From: an uncultured Acidobacteriota bacterium
GTDB taxonomy: Bacteria > Actinomycetota > Acidimicrobiia > Spongiisociales > ZC4RG35
DNA length: 64,000 bases
Reading direction: 5' to 3'
NCBI GenBank assembly: GCA_963780755.1
Contig: CAWACX010000002.1
Location: 81,426 to 145,425 of the forward strand
In this document: positions 2,908 through 38,776 of the stretch, one piece after another
Layout: each line of letters opens with the position of its first letter
How positions within the stretch are numbered: the first letter of the stretch is position 1
The notes under the pieces: model-generated
What the model saw: only the letters and a program-made list of their open reading frames with translations
Database searches by the model: none
What the model was told of the DNA's origin: nothing
Program-made: the position numbers and the translations under genes

Positions 2908-2975
2908 GAATACCTCAGTTCGGGTGAGAGAACCGTCGAGGGCTCAATGTTACGGGACTCAGTCGAATACACCAC

Positions 2976-3497
2976 CTACACATCGGAGCCCATCACACCA
3001 ACGTATGGGAGATTCCGATATTTCCCGGCGTAGTCGAGCCCGTAGCCGACGACGAACTCAGGCCCGATGGGAAACCCGACGTACTTGACGTCGATCGGGA
3101 CCCTTTGAATCCCCTCCTTGAGGAGCAACGCAGCGATCTCGAGCGATGCCGGCTTGCGGACGTTGAGGCTCTTCATCAGGTAGTTCAGAGTGAGCCCTGA
3201 GTCGATGATGTCCTCCACGATCAGCACGTGGCGGCCCTCGATCTCTTCGTCGAGGTCCTTGAGGATGCGGACCACTCCCGAAGTCTGAGTGGAGGCGCCG
3301 TATGAGGACACCGCCATGAAGTCGAACTCCACCGGGAGGTCGATGTGACGGGCTAGGTCGGCCATGACCATGAACGCACCGCGCAGGACACCCACCAGGA
3401 GGAGGTCCTGGCCCGAGTAGTCATCGGTGATCTGCTTTCCCATCTCGGAGAGCTTGGAGTCGATGTCCTCGGCGGTGATCAGCGGCTTGATGTCCAT
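2976..3497 (-). CDS. hpt: hypoxanthine-guanine phosphoribosyltransferase
   Basis: 173 aa with the PRPP-binding motif VLIVEDIIDSGLT. The tilS-hpt-ftsH order is conserved in actinobacteria. Confidence 0.9.
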   Translation of the reverse strand: MDIKPLITAEDIDSKLSEMGKQITDDYSGQDLLLVGVLRGAFMVMADLARHIDLPVEFDFMAVSSYGASTQTSGVVRILKDLDEEIEGRHVLIVEDIIDSGLTLNYLMKSLNVRKPASLEIAALLLKEGIQRVPIDVKYVGFPIGPEFVVGYGLDYAGKYRNLPYVGVMGSDV

Positions 3498-6964: not shown

Positions 6965-7039
6965 TGGAGCCGGAGAGGGGAGTCGAACCCCTGGCCCACG
7001 CCTTACGAGGACGTTGCTCTACCACTGAGCTACTCCGGC
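6965..7039 (-). tRNA. tRNA-Thr (anticodon CGU), CCA encoded
   Basis: The reverse complement GCCGGAGTAGCTCAGTGGTAGAGCAACGTCCTCGTAAGGCGTGGGCCAGGGGTTCGACTCCCCTCTCCGGCTCCA folds as a cloverleaf. It has a 7-bp acceptor stem, D arm GCTC/GAGC, anticodon stem ACGTC/GGCGT with loop CTCGTAA, and T arm AGGGG-TTCGACT-CCCCT. Confidence 0.93.
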
Positions 7040-27987: not shown

Positions 27988-28003
27988 GACGGTCCAAATT
28001 ACG
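27983..28003. repeat. second copy (20/21 identical) of the AT-rich motif GACCTG[A/T]CGGTCCAAATTACG
   Basis: GACCTGACGGTCCAAATTACG here versus GACCTGTCGGTCCAAATTACG at 46105-46125. Both copies are followed by a G-rich run. Confidence 0.7.
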
Positions 28004-29088
28004 GGGAGGGGAGCACCGCATCGAGGGCTGCGACGAAGAGGTGGTTTTCCGCTTCGGTGCCCACTGTCACCCGGAGCCATCCCCCGGACATGGGGCGGAT
28101 GATCACGCCTTGCTCGAGGATCGACGCGGCCACCGCGTTCGAGTCGTCGCCGAGGCGGAAGTAGACGAAGTTGGCCTGGCTGTCCGAATGTTCGAGCCTG
28201 CGCTCGGCCAGGGCGCCCATTAGGTGCTGGCGTCCCACGGCATTGGCCGCAACCCGGCGCTCCAGCTCGGCGGGGTTCCCCAACGATGCCGTGGCCGCGG
28301 CCTGTGACACCTGACTGATGGTGAACGGGGGCTGGGTCTTTCGCAGCTCACCGAGCGTGTCCGGATGCCCCACGGCGTAGCCCACCCGGTGCGAGGCCAG
28401 CCCGTAGACCTTGCTGAAGGTCCTGAGCACGACCACGTTCCGGCGGCTGGTGGCGATCCCCAATGCGCTCCGGTGCCCCGGGTCGGTCACGAAGTCGTGA
28501 TATGCCTCGTCGACGACGAGGAGCACCCTTTCCGGGAGCGTGGTGGCGAATGCCTCGACCTCGTCAGCTGAGACGATTGTCCCGGTGGGGTTGTTGGGGT
28601 TGCAGAGATAGACCACTGTGGTGTCGTCGCGGATCGCCGCGGCCATGGCCGCCAGGTCGTGGACATGGCGATCGGTGAGAGGGACCTCGACGTTGGTGGT
28701 CATGGCCCAGGCGGAGACCGTGCGGTACATGATGAACGAGGGCCAACCGAAGACAGCGCTCGTACCCGGCCCACCCACCGCCAACCCGATGTGACTGAGC
28801 AACGCAACACTGCCGGCCCCGACCCAGAGCTGGTCCTCTGGAACCTCGAGCCAGCGTGACATCGCTCGGGATAGTGCCGTGGTGTCGGTGTCCGGATATC
28901 GGTTCGAGGACCCCAATGCCGAGATCGCAGCTTCGATGACCCCGGGGAAAGGGCCGTCGGGGCTCTCGTTGGAGGCCAGCTTGACGATCTCGCCCTCCGT
29001 GAGGCCCGAGGTCCTGGGCCACTTCCTCGATAGGGCGCCCCGGCACATAGCCCCTCATCGCCGTCAGGTCCGGTCGAAAGGTCGGCAC
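27999..29088 (-). pseudogene. hisC: histidinol-phosphate/aromatic aminotransferase (class II PLP), apparent +1 frame change near 29004
   Basis: The GTG at 29088 gives MPTFRPDLTAMRGYVPGRPIEEVAQDLG. The conserved continuation LTEGEIVKLASNESPDGPFPGV...YPDTD...TFSKVYGLASHRVGY is in the frame of ORF 27999..29048. Confidence 0.8.
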
Positions 29089-29231
29089 ACGACCGACGAT
29101 AGTTTCCCTGCATCACCGGCAAATGGCGTGGCAGACTCGACAAACGATGGTTTCTGCCGACATCGCAGCATCGCCTACCGTCATCCAGATCGCGGCATCA
29201 GACGGTCAATGCCGCGCAGGAGGAGTAGGAA

Positions 29232-31379
29232 TTGGCAGCGCGCAGAGCCGGTCTCGGTCGCGGCTTGGAGGCACTGATCCCGACAGGCAATTCTGAGCAT
29301 CACAAAAAGCGTGCCCTTCGGATAATCGACGCCGACGGGCACCTGGTCGCCGACGACCCTGGGCTCGATCCCGAGCTCTACCAGCAGATGTACCGGCAAA
29401 TGGTCCAGGCCCGTGTCCTCGATCGGCGGATGCTCGCGATGCAACGACAGGGCCGGCTGGGGACCTACGCCATGCTCGAAGGCCAGGAAGCGGTACAGAT
29501 CGGCTCCGCCCTCGCCCTGCGACCGGACGACTTCGTGTTCCCCTCCTACCGGGAGCACGCGGTCCAGGTCTCCAGAGGGCTGCCCATCGAAGTCCTCCTC
29601 GCCTACTGGAAGGGGCTCCCCAACTCGGGATGGGACATCGAGAAGTACCGCACCGGGATCGTCACCGTCCCCATCGCCAGCCAGCTGCCCCACGCCGTCG
29701 GCTACTCCTATATGACAAAGCTCCGCGGCGAGGACACCGTCACCGCCACCTACTTCGGTGACGGCGCCACCTCGGAGAGTGACTTCCACGCAGCGATGAA
29801 CTTCGCAGGAGTATGGAAGACCCCGACCGTTTTCATCTGCGCCAACAACCTCTACGCGATCTCGGTCCCCTACGAGAAGCAGACGGCATCGGAGACCATC
29901 GCCCAGAAGGCCGCCGCTTACGGCTTCGATGGCTTCAGGGTCGACGGCATGGACCCGATCGCGATGTTCCTCGCCACCCGGCTCGCGGTCCGGCATGCCC
30001 GAAAGGGCCAGGGACCGACCCTGATCGAGGCCATGACCTACCGCTACGGACCGCATGCCACCGCCGACGACCCGACCCGATACCGGTCCCGCGAGGAAGA
30101 GCAGAAGTGGAGGCGCCGCGATCCGATCGAGAGGCTGCGCCGTTTCCTGGAGCGACGGGACGAGTGGGACCAGGAAACCGAGGAGAAGGTCACCCGGGAG
30201 GCCTCAGAGGAGGTAGAAGCTGCAATCACAGCCATTGAGGCCGAGGCACTCCCGTCGCGAGACGACGCAGTGCGGCACGGCTTCCACAGGATCCCCGCCC
30301 ACGTCGTGGAGCAGTTGCATTCAATGCAGCGGGCTCACGGCGAGGAGCCGACACCGTTCCGGGACGACGAAGTCTGGGCGATAGGCGAGGATGCGCTCCC
30401 GGCGGGGCCGACCGAGTCCTGGACCATGGCCGATGCAATCAATGCCGCGCTGGGCCAAGCTATGGGGCGAAACCCCGATGTGGTGGTTCTGGGCGAGGAC
30501 GTGGGTTTGAGTGGCGGCGTTTTCCGGATCACTGAAGGGCTTCAGGAGAACTACGGCGAGGCGAGAGTCATCGACACCCCGCTCAACGAGTCCGGGATCG
30601 TCGGGGCTGCCGTGGGGATGGCCCTCGCCGGCGGTCGCCCGGTGGCGGAGATCCAGTTCGAGGGGTTCGTTTACCCGGCTTTCGACCAGATAGTCAGCCA
30701 TCTCGGTCGGTTCCGATTCCGGACCAGAGGCAGCTCCAGCCTCCCGGTGGTGGTGCGCTTCCCCAACGGCGCCGGCATCGGCGCCCACGAGCACCACTGC
30801 GACTCACCCGAGGCCTATTTCGTCCACGCACCTGGCCTGGTCGTGATCTGCCCGTCGACCGCAGTCGACGCCAAGGGCCTCCTCGCCGCAGCTCTCGAGG
30901 GCGACGATCCGGTGATCTTCCTCGAGCCCAAGGTCCTCTACAGGGCGGGCCGGGAGGATGTTCCAACCGAGCACTACACCCTTCCCATCGGCCGGGCCCG
31001 GGTGCGACGAGCGGGCACCGACCTCACCCTGGTCACCTACGGAGGCATGGTCCCCGTCGCGCTCGAGGCCGCCGAACGCTCCGGGGCCTCGGTGGAGGTC
31101 GTCGATCTTCGCACACTGTTCCCGTGGGACCGGGAGACCGTCCTCGCCTCGGTCTCGCGGACCGGGCGCCTGCTTCTCGTCCAGGAACCCCAGGGATCGG
31201 CCGGCGTGGCCGCCGAGGTGGCTGCCGTGGTCGCGGAAAAGGCCCTCTACGACCTCCAGGCGCCGATCGTCAGAGTCACTGGGTACGACGTGCCCTGGCC
31301 TCAGTTCGCCATCGAGAAGCACGCCCTGATCGATGTCGACCGGGTGCTCGCCGGGATACGGGAGGCCCTCGGACGTTGA
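29232..31379 (+). CDS. 2-oxoacid (pyruvate/branched-chain type) dehydrogenase E1 component, fused alpha-beta subunits
   Basis: 715 aa. The alpha part has the TPP motif (YFGDGATSESDFHAAMNFAGVWKTPTVFICANN). The beta part (TMADAINAALGQAM...VLGEDVG...VIDTPLNESGIVG) follows with no stop between them. TTG start at 29232, 8 nt after AGGAGGAG. Confidence 0.85.
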   Translation: MAARRAGLGRGLEALIPTGNSEHHKKRALRIIDADGHLVADDPGLDPELYQQMYRQMVQARVLDRRMLAMQRQGRLGTYAMLEGQEAVQIGSALALRPDDFVFPSYREHAVQVSRGLPIEVLLAYWKGLPNSGWDIEKYRTGIVTVPIASQLPHAVGYSYMTKLRGEDTVTATYFGDGATSESDFHAAMNFAGVWKTPTVFICANNLYAISVPYEKQTASETIAQKAAAYGFDGFRVDGMDPIAMFLATRLAVRHARKGQGPTLIEAMTYRYGPHATADDPTRYRSREEEQKWRRRDPIERLRRFLERRDEWDQETEEKVTREASEEVEAAITAIEAEALPSRDDAVRHGFHRIPAHVVEQLHSMQRAHGEEPTPFRDDEVWAIGEDALPAGPTESWTMADAINAALGQAMGRNPDVVVLGEDVGLSGGVFRITEGLQENYGEARVIDTPLNESGIVGAAVGMALAGGRPVAEIQFEGFVYPAFDQIVSHLGRFRFRTRGSSSLPVVVRFPNGAGIGAHEHHCDSPEAYFVHAPGLVVICPSTAVDAKGLLAAALEGDDPVIFLEPKVLYRAGREDVPTEHYTLPIGRARVRRAGTDLTLVTYGGMVPVALEAAERSGASVEVVDLRTLFPWDRETVLASVSRTGRLLLVQEPQGSAGVAAEVAAVVAEKALYDLQAPIVRVTGYDVPWPQFAIEKHALIDVDRVLAGIREALGR

Positions 31380-32194: not shown

Positions 32195-33073
32195 GTGCCA
32201 CGACTCATTCGAGCCGCCGGGGGTGTCGTGATACGGCGAACCCGGAAAGGCCGCATCGAGGTCCTGGTCTCTCACCGCCCGCGCTACGACGACTGGTCGT
32301 TGCCCAAGGGCAAGGCAGATCCCAACGAAACGCCTGAGCAAACAGCAATCCGCGAGGTGCTCGAGGAGACGGGATATCACTGCCGAATCGTGGCTCCATT
32401 GGGGAAGACGCGATATCGGGTGTCCAGTCGCACCAAAGAGGTGAGCTGGTTCGTGATGCGGCCTCTCCCCGACAGTCCCGGGTTCAAGCCCAACAACGAG
32501 GTCGACAAGGTCAAATGGCTGAAACGCAAGAAGGCAGCCTCGCGCCTCGACTACGAGCGCGACCGGGCTCTGGTCGCCGAGACCGATCTCAAGAAGCTGG
32601 CCAGAACCGGGACACTCTTCCTGGTGCGACATGCCACCGCAGGCGACCGCTCGAAGTGGAAAGGCAGTGACCGCAGCCGTGATCTGACCAAGTCCGGGAT
32701 CAGACAGTCGCAATCGATCGCAGATAGCCTGGCGGGGCGTGGCATCGAGCGCATCTTGAGCAGCCCCTATGACCGGTGCACTCAGACGATGGTGCCCCTG
32801 GCCTCGCTCACAGGAGCCCCTGTCGAGAGCACCGAGGCTTTGGTCGAAGGACACGACGTCAATGGGGCATGGGAGCTGGTCAAGTCGCTGGTGGGGCAAA
32901 ACGCGGTGCTCTGCACCCACGGCGACATCATCGCTCCGCTGATGAGCCGCCTCATCGAAGCCGGCCTCAGCATCGATTCCCGGCTCTATTACTCCAAGGG
33001 TTCGACCTGGGAGGTCGAAGTGGACGGGGGCAAGTTCACCACCGGCACCTACGTCCCGCCGTCCAACAAGTAA
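32195..33073 (+). CDS. mutT1: Nudix hydrolase fused to histidine-phosphatase domain (MutT1-like)
   Basis: Nudix box GKADPNETPEQTAIREVLEETG, then the RHG phosphatase motif LFLVRHATAGDR and a C-terminal THGD. This is the same architecture as mycobacterial MutT1. Confidence 0.8.
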   Translation: MPRLIRAAGGVVIRRTRKGRIEVLVSHRPRYDDWSLPKGKADPNETPEQTAIREVLEETGYHCRIVAPLGKTRYRVSSRTKEVSWFVMRPLPDSPGFKPNNEVDKVKWLKRKKAASRLDYERDRALVAETDLKKLARTGTLFLVRHATAGDRSKWKGSDRSRDLTKSGIRQSQSIADSLAGRGIERILSSPYDRCTQTMVPLASLTGAPVESTEALVEGHDVNGAWELVKSLVGQNAVLCTHGDIIAPLMSRLIEAGLSIDSRLYYSKGSTWEVEVDGGKFTTGTYVPPSNK

Positions 33074-33109
33074 TCGGCGCTCTCTGGGAGAATCCGGCTT
33101 CGGACTCAG

Positions 33110-35188
33110 ATGCCTCCGACAGGGGTATGGAGGAAAGCAGTGCCCTCGACCGGCCGACAAAGCACCCGGATCATCCTCCTCTTCGGCATGTCGGCGATGG
33201 CGCTCTCCCTGTTCGCTGCCCAACCGGCTTCCGCATCCGGTGACACCACTGTCCGTTGGGAGAGCTTCTCCGAGTCGCCGGAATGCGGACAGCCCTACAC
33301 CCGACCGCCTCAAGTCTCGAAGTCCGGCTCGTTGACCAACAGCGAGCGGATCCTCGGGCCTTTCGGCACCTACTTCGGGCGCTCGATCAACCAGGTGAAG
33401 TCTCGACTCGTGCTGTGGACTGTCCCCGGCAGTGGTGGGCAACGGGTCCTCGTCCATAACGCGGCCCTGCCCGCGTTTCGGCGCGTGGCGACGGGACTGG
33501 CGGCGGCGGCGGCCAATGGCCAGGTGTATCGGATCACCAGGGTCAGCGCCTTCTCCGCCCGCACCGTCGACGGGACCCGGCAGATCTCCAGGCATGGCCT
33601 GGGGACGGCCATCGACATCAACTACCCACAGAACCCCTACCGCGCCGACGGAAAACTGATCACCGACTTCCCCGACTGGTTCGTCAAGGTCTGGCGGGAT
33701 GCCGGGTTTTGTTGGGGTGGGGACTGGAGAGGGTCGAAGGACGCCATGCACTTCTCCTGGGTGGGGCCCAAGGCCACGCCGGCCACCAACGACCCGCTGC
33801 CACCGATTCCACCGCTGACCTCGATCAAGGTCTTCGGCGCTCCGGTGGCCGACATCTCGACGATTTTCGCCCCGGTCATCGATCGGTACGACTTCATGAT
33901 CGCCGACGGCGACGGCAACGCTTCGCCAGACGTGATCGGGTTGCGGTCCCACCCCGACGGCTCCGTGATCGACGTCGCCTCAGGAATCGACATGTTCGGC
34001 GCCTGCTCCATCGCCCGCTTCTTCGTTCCGGACAAGACCTTGGCAGGGGCAGAGCACACCCTGTTCGTCGACATCGACGGTGACAGCCGCCAGGACCTGG
34101 TGTCGATCAACGGATCCCAGGCGCGGGTCGCCACCCGGCGCGGTGACTACGAGGACCTGGCCACCAGGGCCACCTCCATCGAACCCGACGCAGTCGCCAT
34201 CGCGGGAGGTGACTTCAATGCCGACCACCTCGCCGACCTTTGGGTGGTCTCTGCCGATGGCAATCTGCGAGTGCATGCCGGGCCAGCTTGGACCAGTGTC
34301 CTCCACCAGCAGGCCCTCCCCGATGGGGCGCCGCTCGAGATCGCTGTCGGAGACCGGGATGGCGGCAACCTTCCCGAGCTGTTCGCCCTTTACTCGTCGG
34401 GTACCGGGAGCCGGGTCGAGGTGCTCAAGCTCGGCGGGAGTTGGCAGTTGTCCCAGGGGGTCCCGGTCTCGGTGCCGGCGGCCCAGGTCCGATCGCTAGG
34501 TGCGGCCGACTACGACGGCGACGGCCGAGCCGACATCCAGGTGTTCGACGGGCGCCTCAAGCCATACTTGGGCAACTCCGCGACCGGCCGCCCTGCGTCG
34601 GGATGGTTTGCCAACCCCAACTGCCCGGATGTCCCCGTCCGACTGCTCTATAACGGGACGTTCTTCGACGACGACGCCAGCGTCCACGTCAAGGGAATCG
34701 AGGCCATGGCCGCGGCGGGGATCACCAAGGGCTGCAACCCACCCTTCAACGACATGTTTTGCCCTGAGCGGACACTGACCAGGGCCGAGGCGGCGACTCT
34801 TCTTGCCCGGGCACTCTCCTTGCCCGATCCGGGGAAGGATTTCTTCGTCGATGACAACGGCGACGTGTTGGAGGGTGGGATCAACCGCCTCGCTGGCGCC
34901 GGGATAACCACCGGATGCAACCCGCCGGCCAACAACCGTTACTGCCCGGATCGGTCGCTGTCCAGGGCAGAGTTCGCCACCTTCATCGCACGCGCCCTGA
35001 GCCTCCCGGCCGCCTCCCGTGACTTCTTTGTCGACGACAACGGGCACATTCTCGAAGGCGCGATCAACCGGATCGCCCAGGCTGGGATAACCACCGGGTG
35101 CAACCCGCCGGCCAACACCCAGTTCTGCCCGGCCCGGCTCAACACCCGGGCGGAGACCGCCACGTTCCTCACCAGAGCGCTGGGATGA
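33110..35188 (+). CDS. secreted multidomain protein: M15 (VanY-like) peptidase + FG-GAP/VCBS-like repeats + three SLH-like repeats
   Basis: Signal peptide (ILLFGMSAMALSLFAAQPASA). M15 zinc ligands are SRHGLGTAIDI and DAMHFSW. D-x-D-G-D type repeats include DIDGDSRQDLV and ADYDGDGRADIQVF. The C-terminus has three 61-aa GITxGC...FCP...TRAE repeats. Confidence 0.75.
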   Translation: MPPTGVWRKAVPSTGRQSTRIILLFGMSAMALSLFAAQPASASGDTTVRWESFSESPECGQPYTRPPQVSKSGSLTNSERILGPFGTYFGRSINQVKSRLVLWTVPGSGGQRVLVHNAALPAFRRVATGLAAAAANGQVYRITRVSAFSARTVDGTRQISRHGLGTAIDINYPQNPYRADGKLITDFPDWFVKVWRDAGFCWGGDWRGSKDAMHFSWVGPKATPATNDPLPPIPPLTSIKVFGAPVADISTIFAPVIDRYDFMIADGDGNASPDVIGLRSHPDGSVIDVASGIDMFGACSIARFFVPDKTLAGAEHTLFVDIDGDSRQDLVSINGSQARVATRRGDYEDLATRATSIEPDAVAIAGGDFNADHLADLWVVSADGNLRVHAGPAWTSVLHQQALPDGAPLEIAVGDRDGGNLPELFALYSSGTGSRVEVLKLGGSWQLSQGVPVSVPAAQVRSLGAADYDGDGRADIQVFDGRLKPYLGNSATGRPASGWFANPNCPDVPVRLLYNGTFFDDDASVHVKGIEAMAAAGITKGCNPPFNDMFCPERTLTRAEAATLLARALSLPDPGKDFFVDDNGDVLEGGINRLAGAGITTGCNPPANNRYCPDRSLSRAEFATFIARALSLPAASRDFFVDDNGHILEGAINRIAQAGITTGCNPPANTQFCPARLNTRAETATFLTRALG
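34658..35185 (+). repeat. three tandem ~183-nt coding repeats (SLH-like, Cys-containing)
   Basis: Units start near 34658, 34838 and 35021. Units 2 and 3 begin DFFVDDNG(D/H)(V/I)LEG(G/A)INR(L/I)A(G/Q)AGITTGCNPPAN. Confidence 0.8.
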
Positions 35189-35219
35189 CACACCCGGCAT
35201 TAGCCGACGGTGCGGTGAC

Positions 35220-36983
35220 TCAGACGGTCTTGGTGCCGGCCACCCAGTCTCGGTAGAGGGCGGCGTACAGCCCTTCGTGGGCGATCAGGTCACGGTGATG
35301 GCCTCGTTCGACGAGACGGCCCTTGTCGAACACCAAAACCTCGTCAGCCCCTTCGGCTGTCGCCAGGCGGTGGGCGATGGTGACCGAGGTCCGACCTTCG
35401 ATCAGGTGCTGGATGGCGTGCCTCAGGGCCACGTCGAGTGCCGGGTCGACCGCGGAGGTCGCCTCATCGAGGACCAGGAGATCGGGGGAGCCGATCCATG
35501 CCCGGACCAGCGCCACCAGCTGGCGCTCGCCGGCGGAGAGGTTGCCTCCTCGCTCGCCCACCTGGGTGTCGAGGCCGGCGGGAAGCCCGGTCAGCCAATC
35601 TCCGAGCTCCAACTCGTGGAACGAAGTCCAGATCTCGGCGTCGTCGGCTTCCGGGCTTCCGTATCGGACGTTTCCGGCGATGGTGTCGTCGAAGAGGAAA
35701 CCTTCCTGGGGGACGAAGGCCACCCGGGAGCGAAGCTCGGCGAGGGGAACCCGCTTGGCGTTGACCCCACCAATGGTCACCGCGCCTCCGCTGGGGTCGA
35801 CCAAGCGCACCAGCAGCTTGGCGAAGGTCGTCTTCCCGGAGCCGGTCTCACCAACCACCGCGACCCGCGACCCGACCGGGATGTCCACGGTCACGCCCTG
35901 CAGCACTTCAGACCCTTCCTCGTATGAGAAGTTGACGTCTCGGAACCGGGCGCTGAGCCCTCCCGACCGGAGGTGCTCGGGGTTCTCAGGGTCGGCGACT
36001 TCGATCTCGCTGTCCAGGGCGCCGAGGATCCGGCGCAATCCCGAGGCCGCATGCTGGGCGAACTCCAGAGTCTCCACCACGATCTGAAGTGGCTCAATGA
36101 GCAGATTGGTGAGGAAGAGGAAGGCGATCAGGGTCCCCGCGGTCATCCCCTGGTTGACACCGATGATGATCCCGGTGACCACGATGGCGGCGGTGAGCAG
36201 GCCGGCGAACACCTCGGCCGAGGAGAAGAGGATGTTTCCGAAGCGGGCGGTCCTGAACTCGGACCAGAACCTCCGCTCCAGGGCTTCGGCGACCTTGACC
36301 TTGGTCGGCTCCTCGATCCCATAGGAACGGACCACCGGGATCGCGGTGATCGACTCGCTCAGCACACCGAGGGAGTTCCCCACCTCGCTGCGAACCCGGT
36401 CGTAATTGCGGGACAACACGACCTGGAACCAGCGCATCAGGCCCAGATAGAGCAAGACCCCGACCAGGGCCACCAGGGCGAGGCGCCACTGGTAGACGGA
36501 CATGACCACCAGCGCCAGGAACACCTGGCTCCCGGCGATGACGATCCCGACCCCGCCCCACTCCATGAACTCCTCGAGGGTGGTCACGTCCGAGGTCACC
36601 CGCGAGACGAGGTCTCCGCGGCGGTCGGACTCGGTGTGAAGCACCGAGCGACGGAGCAAATGGCGGAAGGTCATGATCCGGAGGTCGGAGAGACCGTTCG
36701 ACGAGCTTCGGATCAGGCGATGGATGGCAGCCCGGCCCACGAAGGCGCCGATCACGAGACAGACGAGGGCGATGGCCGACTTCTGCAGGACGCCGACCAT
36801 GTCGACTCCGCCTGGAGCCAGGATCTCGTCGTCGATGATCTTTTGCATCACGACCGGGGTGACCACCGTGATCGCCTGCCCCATCATCGCCATCAGCAGC
36901 GTGACCTTCAGCCCGTGGCGCAGCGCCGGAGCCACCCGGAAGGCGCGCACCAGGATCGTGCCGCTGGATGTGGGATCGCTCAC
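35220..36983 (-). CDS. ABC exporter, fused permease/ATP-binding subunit
   Basis: 587 aa with six N-terminal TM helices, Walker A GETGSGKTT, signature LSAGERQ and Walker B LLVLDEATS. Confidence 0.9.
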   Translation of the reverse strand: MSDPTSSGTILVRAFRVAPALRHGLKVTLLMAMMGQAITVVTPVVMQKIIDDEILAPGGVDMVGVLQKSAIALVCLVIGAFVGRAAIHRLIRSSSNGLSDLRIMTFRHLLRRSVLHTESDRRGDLVSRVTSDVTTLEEFMEWGGVGIVIAGSQVFLALVVMSVYQWRLALVALVGVLLYLGLMRWFQVVLSRNYDRVRSEVGNSLGVLSESITAIPVVRSYGIEEPTKVKVAEALERRFWSEFRTARFGNILFSSAEVFAGLLTAAIVVTGIIIGVNQGMTAGTLIAFLFLTNLLIEPLQIVVETLEFAQHAASGLRRILGALDSEIEVADPENPEHLRSGGLSARFRDVNFSYEEGSEVLQGVTVDIPVGSRVAVVGETGSGKTTFAKLLVRLVDPSGGAVTIGGVNAKRVPLAELRSRVAFVPQEGFLFDDTIAGNVRYGSPEADDAEIWTSFHELELGDWLTGLPAGLDTQVGERGGNLSAGERQLVALVRAWIGSPDLLVLDEATSAVDPALDVALRHAIQHLIEGRTSVTIAHRLATAEGADEVLVFDKGRLVERGHHRDLIAHEGLYAALYRDWVAGTKTV

Positions 36984-38776
36984 GACGCCTCCTCCGCCAT
37001 CCTCCGGGCATCTTCCTCGTAGGCCTGGACCAAACGGGCATACCCGGGGGTGGTGGCCAAGAGCTCGTCGTGATTCCCGTGGGCCACGACTCGGCGCTCG
37101 TCGACATAGACCACCTCGTCGGCCAGGCGGATCGAGGCCGGGCGATAGGCGACCACCACGATCGTCGAGGGGAGCTCAGCCGTGCGCAAGCTGCGCAGAA
37201 TCTCGGCCTCGACGGACGGATCGACCGCCGAAGTGGCGTCGTCGAGGATCAGGACACGGGGCTTGCGGATAAGGGCCCGGGCCAATGCGATCCTCTGTCG
37301 CTGACCCCCGGACAGGGTCGTCCCCCGCTCTCCGAGTTGGGTTTCGAACCCGTTGGGCAGGGCGGATATGAAGGCGTCGGCCCCCGCCAGCCGGGCCGCA
37401 TTCCGGACCTCGGTCTCGGAGAATTCCTGGCCCAGGGTGATGTTGCCGCGGACGGTATCGTCGAAGAGGAAGGCCTCCTGGGTGACATACGACACCTCTT
37501 TGGGCAGCTCGGACGGCCCGAATGAGCGCAGATCCTGGCCATCGATGTGGATCGCACCCTGTGCCGGGTCCCAGAGCCGGGCCATCAGCAGCGTGAGCGT
37601 CGACTTGCCGGAGGCGGTGGGACCGACGACAGCCAGAGTGGTCCCAGCCGTGAGGTGGAGGTCGAGCCCATCGAGGACCGGTGCGGTGTCGTCGTAGGCG
37701 AAAGACACGGTCTGCCCGCGGATCGGGGCCGCGCCTGCATCGGGCCGGGCGAGGGCCTCCCCGTACTCCATGAACTCGTCAGCTTCGAACACCCCCTCCA
37801 CCCGCCTCCAACCCGCGAGGCTGCCAGCCAGGTCCCAGAGCACGAAACCGATGAGCTGGATCGGAAAGGCCAGCAACGACAGCAAGTAGGCGACGGTGAC
37901 GATCTCACCCGGGGTCACATCCCCCTGTCCCACGAGGTAGGCACCAACGGCGAGCAACGAGATGATTAGCGCCTGCGGGAGGGCGCGGATCACCGCCTGG
38001 TACGACGCCCAGGTCGAGTTCACCTTGATCAGCCGGTCTCGAAGCAAGTCGGATGCGACGCCGAAATGATCGGCGACGAAGTCCTCCCGTCCCAGGGACT
38101 TCACGGTGAGGGCGCCGTCGAAAGACTCATGGGCGACTGAAGCGACGTCGCCGCGGGAGGCTTGGACCCTTTCCCAAAGCTCGAAGGTCACCCAGCTTCC
38201 CTTGATGTCGATGACGGCAATAACGATCAGCCCGACAGTGGCCCCGAGCCCGAGCCAGGGATCGATGGCCGTGATCATCACGATCGTTCCCACCAGGAGC
38301 AGCGAGACCCCGGTCGCGTAGGGCAGCGGCCCGAGGACGCCGGTCCCCTGGTCGACGTCGGCGTCGGCCACGGCGAGCAGGTCGCCGATCGACTGCCGGT
38401 TGAGCCAGGACATGCGCAGGGAGAGCTGGTGCTCGAGGAGCTGGTTGCGCAGGTCGCGGCGTGTGGAGAACTGAAGCCAGCCGGCCGCGGTGCGCCGGAG
38501 GACGATCCCGCCGGCCTTGATCACCGCCACGGCGAGGATGGCGGCAACCGCGGGAAGGACCAGGCCCTCGGGGGGTACCCCTTTGTCGAGCACCGGGATG
38601 ATCAACTCATCCGTGACCCGGCCGATGACCCACGCCGAAGCGATGATGGCCCCGGCGAACACGGCGGCGCCGAACACGGCCAGCCCGAAGGCCGCCGGGT
38701 GCCCTTTGACGAAACGCCAAATGAGGCTGATTCCGTCGCGGAGCACCAACCAAGGGGTGTTTTTCTCGGAGGGCAT
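36980..38776 (-). CDS. ABC exporter, fused permease/ATP-binding subunit (partner of 35220..36983)
   Basis: Walker A GPTASGKST, signature LSGGQRQ and Walker B VLILDDATS, with a GTGA overlap to the downstream partner. The start is ATG at 38776 (the track uses TTG at 38794). Confidence 0.9.
   Translation of the reverse strand: MPSEKNTPWLVLRDGISLIWRFVKGHPAAFGLAVFGAAVFAGAIIASAWVIGRVTDELIIPVLDKGVPPEGLVLPAVAAILAVAVIKAGGIVLRRTAAGWLQFSTRRDLRNQLLEHQLSLRMSWLNRQSIGDLLAVADADVDQGTGVLGPLPYATGVSLLLVGTIVMITAIDPWLGLGATVGLIVIAVIDIKGSWVTFELWERVQASRGDVASVAHESFDGALTVKSLGREDFVADHFGVASDLLRDRLIKVNSTWASYQAVIRALPQALIISLLAVGAYLVGQGDVTPGEIVTVAYLLSLLAFPIQLIGFVLWDLAGSLAGWRRVEGVFEADEFMEYGEALARPDAGAAPIRGQTVSFAYDDTAPVLDGLDLHLTAGTTLAVVGPTASGKSTLTLLMARLWDPAQGAIHIDGQDLRSFGPSELPKEVSYVTQEAFLFDDTVRGNITLGQEFSETEVRNAARLAGADAFISALPNGFETQLGERGTTLSGGQRQRIALARALIRKPRVLILDDATSAVDPSVEAEILRSLRTAELPSTIVVVAYRPASIRLADEVVYVDERRVVAHGNHDELLATTPGYARLVQAYEEDARRMAEEAS

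Follow-up and report, generated by a model that had tools for sequence, protein, structure and literature searches.

ATPases of the ParA/MinD type are known to position not only DNA but also carboxysomes, chemoreceptor arrays, flagella and the divisome, and in the cases described the connection is made by a dedicated partner protein. The subject of the present work is a gene whose product appears to carry, in front of a metabolic enzyme, the ParA-contacting peptide of one such partner, the chromosome-partition protein ParB. The gene occupies positions 29232-31379 of the forward strand in a 64,000-nucleotide stretch (the window) of contig CAWACX010000002.1, from an uncultured soil bacterium placed among the Acidimicrobiia in the GTDB lineage, and it encodes 715 amino acids comprising a peptide, a linker and a fused E1 alpha-beta of the 2-oxoacid dehydrogenases. 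In the cargo systems described so far a dedicated ParA paralogue is found, usually adjoining a dedicated adaptor with its own peptide. Examples of these adaptors are McdB for carboxysomes, PomX/PomY and ParP/ParC, and the scheme proposed here for the E1 resembles theirs in outline, an N-terminal peptide of the partner engaging a ParA-family ATPase so that a large assembly is positioned on the nucleoid (PMC11407121; PMC10241942). The E1 differs from them in that the enzyme itself is tagged, that the tag copies the ParB motif and that no dedicated ATPase gene lies nearby. A 2024 review of ParA/MinD cargos mentions no dehydrogenase (PMC11407121), and in open-access papers and preprints we found no earlier description of the ParB motif on another protein or of ParA in connection with pyruvate dehydrogenase.

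The ParB peptide is best described for Myxococcus xanthus, where modelling, nuclear magnetic resonance and mutagenesis indicate that it takes up a short helix on binding ParA (PMC12462528). Residues L11, R13, L15, L18 and I19 are required for this binding, the central arginine R13 contacting the other ParA subunit, and in the presence of DNA a peptide of residues 1-20 suffices to stimulate the ATPase of ParA (PMC12462528). There are two peptide sites per ParA dimer, which probably must both be occupied for full activation, and joining two peptides strengthens the binding; closed ParB clamps activate ParA far more strongly than a single peptide does (PMC12462528). On the side of the enzyme, the closest functional precedent, by analogy, would be the pyruvate dehydrogenase (PDH) E1 alpha of Bacillus subtilis, which is located over the nucleoid and has an effect on the formation of the Z-ring (PMC4030479). 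The likeness lies in an E1 alpha that associates with the nucleoid and connects the cell cycle with central metabolism, and the difference in that the abstract of that work gives no ParA-type motif or tethering mechanism (PMC4030479).

The gene opens with a TTG start codon (29232-29234) preceded at 6 nt by the Shine-Dalgarno sequence AGGAGGAG (29218-29225), and an in-frame TAG (29226-29228) closes the frame ahead of the start, much as an earlier reading made from the letters of the window without database searches (the sequence-only reading) had described. This TAG is not conserved, since the orthologue at locus L002 reads through. The N-terminus of the product is MAARRAGLGRGLEALIPTGNSEHHKKRALRIIDADGHLV, in which we distinguish a ParB-type peptide M1-P17 (MAARRAGLGRGLEALIP, 29232-29282) with its core motif G7-P17 (29250-29282) and the basic residues R4 and R5 just ahead of it. 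A variable linker follows (residues 18-28, TGNSEHHKKRA; 29283-29315), predicted to be largely flexible. Behind it are an E1 alpha module that binds thiamine diphosphate (residues 29-365; 29316-30326) and an E1 beta module with transketolase pyrimidine-binding and C-terminal domains (residues 397-713; 30420-31370), all of them on the forward strand.

The protein belongs to the thiamine-diphosphate-dependent E1 family of 2-oxoacid dehydrogenases, of the alpha plus beta type. Pfam finds E1_dh (PF00676) at residues 54-338 (E=4e-86), Transket_pyr (PF02779) at 398-571 and Transketolase_C (PF02780) at 587-705. The NCBIfam model TIGR03181 for PDH E1 alpha matches residues 29-363 with 429.4 bits against a cut-off of 411.35, homology to the solved structure of Geobacillus stearothermophilus (1w85_A, from its residue 23) likewise begins at residue 29, and the beta module matches 1ik6_A, 1um9_B and 1w85_B at E<=1e-90. 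Residues 1-28 are therefore an extension ahead of a normal-looking enzyme, and the E1 homology does begin about ten residues past the peptide, as was first read from the sequence. The thiamine-diphosphate motif is intact (GDG-X26-NN for a criterion of GDG-X(24-27)-NN: G176-D177-G178 and N205-N206), with G176, G178, N205 and N206 invariant over 56 homologues and D177 nearly so, and the enzyme behind the peptide looks catalytically intact. Database names for the protein are pyruvate or 2-oxoisovalerate dehydrogenase E1. Both modules share full-length homology and the intact motif with the heterotetrameric E1s of pyruvate and branched-chain 2-oxoacid dehydrogenases (G. stearothermophilus 1W85, Thermus thermophilus 1UM9) and with untagged fusions. 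The heterotetrameric enzymes differ in having alpha and beta in separate chains, here joined in one, and the 28-residue extension is absent from the solved homologues, from the fusions of haloarchaea, Nocardiopsis and Streptomyces and from most of those in Acidimicrobiia.

That a near-perfect ParB N-terminal signature opens this E1, as the sequence-only reading had claimed, was borne out by profile searches and by the ParB consensus of the class. The N-termini of 14 E1 orthologues (28-30 residues each) were made into a profile of 30 positions, and in a set of 1.84e9 representative proteins this profile gave 231 matches at E<=1e-3. Among the matches listed (150 of the 231), nearly all are ParB N-termini followed by the NPxQPR box of ParB; some of these, such as MTQRKGGLGRGLAALIPTGP, resemble the sequence that the same reading gives for Mycobacterium tuberculosis ParB. 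Against all PDB sequences the sole match of the profile was T. thermophilus Spo0J, residues 6-18 (SGLGRGLEALLPK, E=5e-4). In the window, translated in all six frames, the full pattern of the motif (10 residues) is found once, and in 724 kb of retrieved loci the motif is confined to E1 and ParB N-termini, plus one looser minus-strand match in L084. The search of the N-terminus and of the whole protein that had been proposed returned, nearly without exception, ParB N-termini for the peptide, and E1 domains for the rest. Residues 1-40 gave no match with Pfam or NCBIfam, which is uninformative either way as their models do not cover a peptide so short.

A search seeded with the full-length cluster member of an Acidimicrobiia ParB among the best profile matches gave 120 Acidimicrobiia ParBs, with the consensus MTTRRGGLGRGLEALIPTG (M-T-T-R-R-G-G-L-G-R-G-L-E-A-L-I-P-T-G). 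The motif begins at index 6 in 111 of these; in the E1 fusions, which read M[TA][AT]RRxGLGRGLEALIP[TS]E, it begins at index 6 or 5. Variability per position is correlated between the E1 and ParB sets (Spearman rho 0.74 over 14 motif positions and 0.92 over 23 positions). Judged by sequence, the extension of the E1 amounts to residues 1-17 of an Acidimicrobiia ParB, the distance from the start methionine included. E1 and ParB thus have in common GLGRGLEALIP with two preceding basic residues, 5-6 residues past the start methionine, and within it four hydrophobic key residues and the central arginine, in a region that was modelled with low confidence. Residues L8, R10, L12, L15 and I16 of the E1 align to L11, R13, L15, L18 and I19 of M. 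xanthus ParB, so that all five ParA-binding residues are present; L8, R10, L15 and I16 are invariant in the orthologues, and L12 is isoleucine in a few. This agrees with the earlier suggestion that the peptide is the part of ParB that contacts ParA. The protein is nevertheless not a ParB: the ParB domain models PF02195, PF17762 and PF23552 gave no match in it, only E1 domains being found, so the ParB_N CTPase, the helix-turn-helix that binds parS and the C-terminal dimerisation domain are missing and the tag sits on a thiamine-diphosphate enzyme instead. Since these domains are absent, there would be no loading at parS and no CTP-gated clamp closure to pair the peptides, and any bivalency must come from E1 dimerisation or from assembly on E2. 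The observation is thereby confirmed as real, non-trivial and more than a chance likeness: a peptide typical of ParA partners sits on a carrier of a new class.

The junction had also been suspected of being a chimeric assembly joint, and the true start of lying only at TTG 29265 or CTG 29274. An artefact of this kind, a parB-E1 misassembly or a miscalled start with translation beginning downstream, could appeal to the start codon being TTG and not ATG, and to the several gene callers that took downstream starts in the orthologues (708-, 704-, 690- and 688-aa versions). However, the same junction recurs. The independent ENA contig L001 encodes an identical E1 protein from DNA that is 97.8-99.5% identical and differs by indels, an orthologue of 91% protein identity from another independent assembly (L002/L003) has the same neighbours on a contig of 2.64 Mb, and the tag is found in 15 GTDB species-representative Acidimicrobiia metagenome-assembled genomes (MAGs), which by accession prefix come from several assembly projects. 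The full motif is visible in 57 of the 120 closest homologues, and most of the shorter ones are gene calls whose downstream start cuts into the motif. Most carriers have a Shine-Dalgarno sequence of the AAGGAG/AGGAGG type 6-12 nt ahead of a TTG or GTG start, and amino-acid conservation starts at the start codon, upstream of every alternative start, the translated sequence further upstream not being conserved. No parB or parA sequence flanks the site. In 16 distinct DNA sequences, 2-5 alternative codons are used at every one of the 11 positions G7-P17, the sole amino-acid change being one E to D; the peptide is therefore translated, in agreement with what had been thought likely from the window, and a start only at the downstream codons is excluded. 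Over 54 full-length carriers the mean pairwise identity is 92% in the motif, 84% in the enzyme core and 33% in the 11-residue linker, which varies little in length (9-11 residues). This pattern of substitution shows strong purifying selection on the amino acids of the motif, which bears on a further proposal, that of a recombination relic. A neutral remnant of an old capture of a parB 5' end, with no present function, would agree with a peptide that is the extreme N-terminus of ParB, suggesting a recombination origin, and with the lineages that lost it or let it decay. As to origin this may be right; as to the present state it is contradicted by amino acids that stay fixed while their codons vary, by a motif more conserved than the catalytic core next to a linker that has drifted, and by a second E1 paralogue that has kept the tag as well. 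The idea of an element acting as RNA in the stretch that encodes the peptide was rejected, since the codons vary freely. The recurrence of the junction, the codon variation and the Shine-Dalgarno sequences together rule out the assembly chimera, which is refuted, as well as the downstream-only start, the RNA-level explanation and the neutral relic; we consider the relic very improbable and the probability of an artefact negligible.

The distribution of the tag is consistent with a gain within the class. Untagged orthologues are found in conserved synteny, with the N-terminus M-G-R-F-E-T-L-R-I-I-D and with shared neighbours upstream (APH kinase, phosphoribosyltransferase, DUF3237 and enoyl-CoA hydratase) and downstream (NUDIX/His-phosphatase, an ABC exporter pair and a sigma-70 gene). 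The tag is absent from more distant E1 fusions, both those of other Acidimicrobiia (57-73% identity) and those of haloarchaea, Nocardiopsis and Streptomyces (43-47%). In a neighbour-joining tree most carriers fall into one clade, and one separate pair of carriers stands elsewhere. Decayed remnants, ELETSIPSEN and ELELLIPSEG (SAELETSIPSEN, EDELELLIPSEG), are recognised at L014, L015 and L077, each at about 2960-3000; in these the GLGRG part is gone and the start has apparently shifted. As the remnants are nested among carriers they point to secondary loss, and the history would agree with a single gain, or a small number of gains, and several later losses. Orthologues lacking the peptide, which had been named as an observation that would tell against its significance, do therefore exist in the syntenic sister lineages, and are better understood as the outcome of a lineage-specific gain with later losses than as a lack of function. 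Seven of the MAGs (L005, L009, L010, L015, L018, L029 and L069) are titled Acidobacteriota or 'Acidobacteria bacterium', and their E1 groups with Acidimicrobiia; they look like mislabelled bins.

The upstream region suggests how the gain took place. A conserved box, TGGCAGACT (29129-29137, forward strand), about 95 nt ahead of the start, is a putative extended -10 promoter element (TGn + CAGACT), its promoter function being inferred. In untagged orthologues the same box (TGTGGCAGACT) is followed after 6 nt by an ATG or GTG start, a layout of the leaderless type, whereas in eight tagged loci it stands 93-105 nt ahead of the start; the box was compared at the window and at L004, L016, L017, L020, L025, L028, L033 and L060. 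This shift in position points to an insertion of about 180 nt, probably made up of a leader of about 95 nt, a ribosome-binding site and 28 codons, and with the tag a gene that had been leaderless seems to have gained a leader and a dependence on a Shine-Dalgarno sequence. DNA similarity to the parB 5' region is confined to the peptide codons, with one exact match of 17 nt, and neither a parA 3' end nor parB upstream sequence, sought as a trace of duplication, was found beside the E1 gene; the peptide may have arisen by capture or by convergence. An ATG about 10 nt past the putative -10 hexamer opens a 43-codon out-of-frame open reading frame (29147-29277) that overlaps the E1 start and the peptide codons; judged by the translated upstream sequence this ATG (29147) appears to be kept in L002, and may mark an upstream open reading frame or be a coincidence. 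The sole sigma-70-like match of a promoter scan (29299-29326, ATCACA-16-GATAAT) lies within the linker-coding region and is probably due to chance; if used, it would give an untagged, N-terminally truncated product.

The profile also brought up a second, divergent E1 alpha of Acidimicrobiia that carries the tag and falls into different 50%-identity clusters from the protein of the window. It starts M-S-T-R-K-P-GLGRGLE[SA]LIP, followed by a linker of about 22 residues, and was found at three loci (L086 6001-6450, L087 6001-6728 and L085 10001-13267), downstream of ftsK in all three. At L085 it belongs to an E1alpha-E1beta-E2 operon; this one locus, ridden with frameshifts, is the sole basis for the operon structure, and a homologue search seeded with the fragment P0197 of this E1 alpha returned fragments only. 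Some copies within the clade of the second E1 alpha are without the tag. In the MAG JBAVIK01 the operon E1 alpha is tagged and the E1 fusion of the same assembly (L021) is not. That two E1 paralogues have each kept the tag independently speaks for a function connected with E1 or with the complex it forms.

Several proteins that are neither E1 nor ParB were also seen to have the motif. A response-regulator receiver protein of 216 aa (P0131/P0453; L090 1712-2362) carries a tandem pair of ParB-like motifs within the C-terminal tail (GGLGRGLSELIPS ... EGLGRGLSALIPS); its cluster has three members, from ENA and JGI, and its genomic context is uninformative. Further carriers are P0165, P0250/P0452, P0194, P0227/P0246 (L089 5001-5675), P0269 and P0163. 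Of these, P0165 and P0250 look like one family with a C-terminal region of about 110 residues in common, P0194 has a long hydrophobic stretch that is possibly membrane-spanning, and P0269 gave weak, sub-threshold zinc-ribbon matches. The remaining ones that were scanned belong to no Pfam family, and the genomic context of P0246 is uninformative. Some of these non-ParB carriers may be frameshift artefacts of long-read assemblies.

An AlphaFold2 model of the single chain (pTM, the predicted template modelling score, 0.81; mean pLDDT, the predicted local distance difference test, 73.8) has its core confidently modelled from about residue 30. Residues 1-11 and 18-25 have pLDDT below 50, and between them a helix of four residues is predicted at 12-15 with low confidence (about 51). 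The model is consistent with an N-terminus that is a short linear motif on a flexible tether. ParA partners have their activating peptide at the extreme N-terminus, unstructured and ahead of the fold, and this arrangement is found here both in the pLDDT values and in the low identity of the linker.

The reading that we favour, with modest confidence, is that the E1, or the complex it belongs to, is docked on the nucleoid-bound chromosomal ParA by a ParB-type ParA-interaction motif that it has captured. In one sub-lineage of Acidimicrobiia the E1 gene would have acquired about 180 nt, with leader, ribosome-binding site and 28 codons, whose product, M-x-x-R-R-x-G-L-G-R-G-L-E-A-L-I-P, is joined to the enzyme by a short, fast-evolving linker. 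The peptide would act on E1 as it does on ParB, binding ParA with its central arginine in contact with the neighbouring ParA subunit. The (alpha-beta)2 dimer of E1, dimerisation being assumed from homology with alpha2beta2 E1s, would present two tags, and the assembly bound to E2 would present many, like a partition complex or an McdB-coated carboxysome, so that avidity would favour the assembled complex. As a likely outcome the 2-oxoacid dehydrogenase complex would be a cargo of ParA, tethered transiently to the nucleoid and spread along the gradient of ParA; alternatively an abundant metabolic enzyme might modulate the ATPase activity of ParA; the sequence does not tell these two outcomes apart.

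As no ParA gene lies near the E1, the candidate partner would be the chromosomal ParA (Soj). The origin region of Acidimicrobiia contains a gidB-parA-parB cluster in the standard origin-proximal layout, and the ParA encoded there aligns to M. xanthus ParA 8RAY (E=1.8e-86) with its six ParB-pocket residues all hydrophobic (I, L, L, V, M and L). At the level of the class, a ParA with a pocket for the ParB peptide thus appears to exist.

Several points weigh against this docking on ParA. Dedicated ParA-partner pairs are usually adjacent. Here an adjoining cognate ParA-family ATPase was not found: no deviant Walker A motif, and so no ParA/MinD gene, is present in any frame of the window, and no ParA, CbiA or MipZ Pfam match was obtained in the +/-10 kb flanks of L001-L004 and L085. 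The sequence-only reading had offered, as a speculation, that a ParA-type ATPase engages the enzyme; that idea is now the best supported by inference, and the orphan ParA/MinD gene that was to be looked for was not found in the window or these flanks. Moreover, the role in ParA binding is carried over from ParB by sequence identity alone, and none of the 120 Acidimicrobiia ParBs was recovered from the same genome as a tagged E1; the one pair found, on the chromosome OZ244213.1 (3.48 Mb), consists of a ParB (P0382) and an untagged E1 (L044). The tag is dispensable in some backgrounds, since at least three lineages nested among the carriers have decayed remnants or have lost it, and the syntenic orthologues of the sister lineages do without it. 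An abundant enzyme equipped with a ParA activator could also disturb chromosome segregation, which makes the cargo model less comfortable. In addition, the AlphaFold2 model is a moderate one, obtained from a shallow alignment.

Other functions of the peptide have to be considered beside ParA docking. It might serve a different partner, such as the E2 core, a peripheral-subunit-binding domain or another E1-specific one, in which case the identity with ParB would tell of its source only. In the homodimeric E1p and E1o the N-terminal segment is an E2-binding element, docking onto E2 is common to E1s and two different E1 paralogues are tagged here, and the missing ParA gene would be no surprise. 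Nevertheless the constrained positions are the same as in ParB, down to the basic pair and the distance from the start methionine, as expected for the same partner, the E1s of the heterotetramer type bind E2 through the C-terminal domain of beta, which is intact in this protein, and the motif occurs as well on proteins unrelated to E1, for instance the response regulator with two tandem copies. We regard a partner other than ParA as rather unlikely. A peptide that does bind ParA might also make of E1 a regulator or decoy that competes with ParB or stimulates the ParA ATPase, coupling segregation or division to the metabolic state. All the evidence for ParA binding applies equally to this, tunable modulation is conceivable given the weak activation by a single peptide (PMC12462528), and the E1 alpha of B. 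subtilis ties pyruvate levels to Z-ring assembly from the nucleoid (PMC4030479). On the other hand, nothing in the sequence separates a regulator from a cargo and the tag has been lost in several lineages with no visible compensation, and we hold such a role to be unlikely.

The layout of the N-terminus also recalls a peptide for targeting to a compartment, be it encapsulation in a microcompartment or cargo loading into an encapsulin, as microcompartment encapsulation peptides consist of a short N-terminal helix and a flexible linker ahead of the enzyme. A similar layout is modelled here, but no shell or encapsulin genes were seen among the Pfam-annotated genes within +/-10 kb, and the sequence matches ParB N-termini specifically and no other family, so that we give this explanation very little credence. 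A twin-arginine translocation (Tat) signal peptide was rejected by reasoning only, there being an RR pair but no hydrophobic h-region and the protein being a cytoplasmic cofactor enzyme.

If docking on ParA is accepted, we can tentatively propose a wider scheme, which at present seems doubtful, where the chromosomal ParA of Acidimicrobiia is a general positioning hub on which non-ParB proteins dock by a copied ParB peptide. These would include megadalton 2-oxoacid dehydrogenase complexes, tagged on either E1 paralogue and tethered and partitioned like a plasmid or a carboxysome. The response regulator with two tandem motifs and several of the proteins without a Pfam family would be further clients.

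Concerning the neighbouring genes, a class I/II aminotransferase gene (27999-29048, reverse strand) is divergently transcribed from the E1 gene. Downstream lies a LOG-family gene (PF03641 and PF18306; 31376-31939, forward strand) whose TTG start overlaps the E1 stop (TTGA, 31376-31379), which suggests that E1 and this gene of the Lysine_decarbox Pfam family are translationally coupled. No E2 or E3 gene was found within +/-10 kb of the E1. Rfam and tRNA scans of the window gave nothing near the locus, and the only RNA gene detected in it is a tRNA-Thr (CGT) at 6965-7039 on the reverse strand. Further downstream, L001 13800-19100 and window positions 33030-38330 are 97.8% identical with 62 gapped positions; gene calls are fragmented in L001, and the window has long intact open reading frames there (M15 peptidase/SLH protein and ABC exporters). 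Such fragmentation is typical of indel errors in long-read assembly.

The finding is that a core metabolic enzyme carries the ParA-binding motif of the chromosome-partition protein and that selection has kept it there in many related species. This points to a so far unreported connection of an enzyme of central metabolism with the machinery of chromosome segregation. The motif provides an explicit search pattern by which further ParA clients can be looked for in genomes. If it binds ParA, the list of ParA cargos would grow to include a soluble metabolic complex, and a short linear motif would be able to move between proteins and rewire the spatial organisation of bacteria. Its five residues would then also be a mutable handle on the link of 2-oxoacid dehydrogenases with the nucleoid and the cell cycle, which has so far been seen in B. 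subtilis. Should the chromosomal ParA prove to be a general hub, a portable 'ParA address tag' would join central carbon metabolism to chromosome dynamics in Acidimicrobiia.

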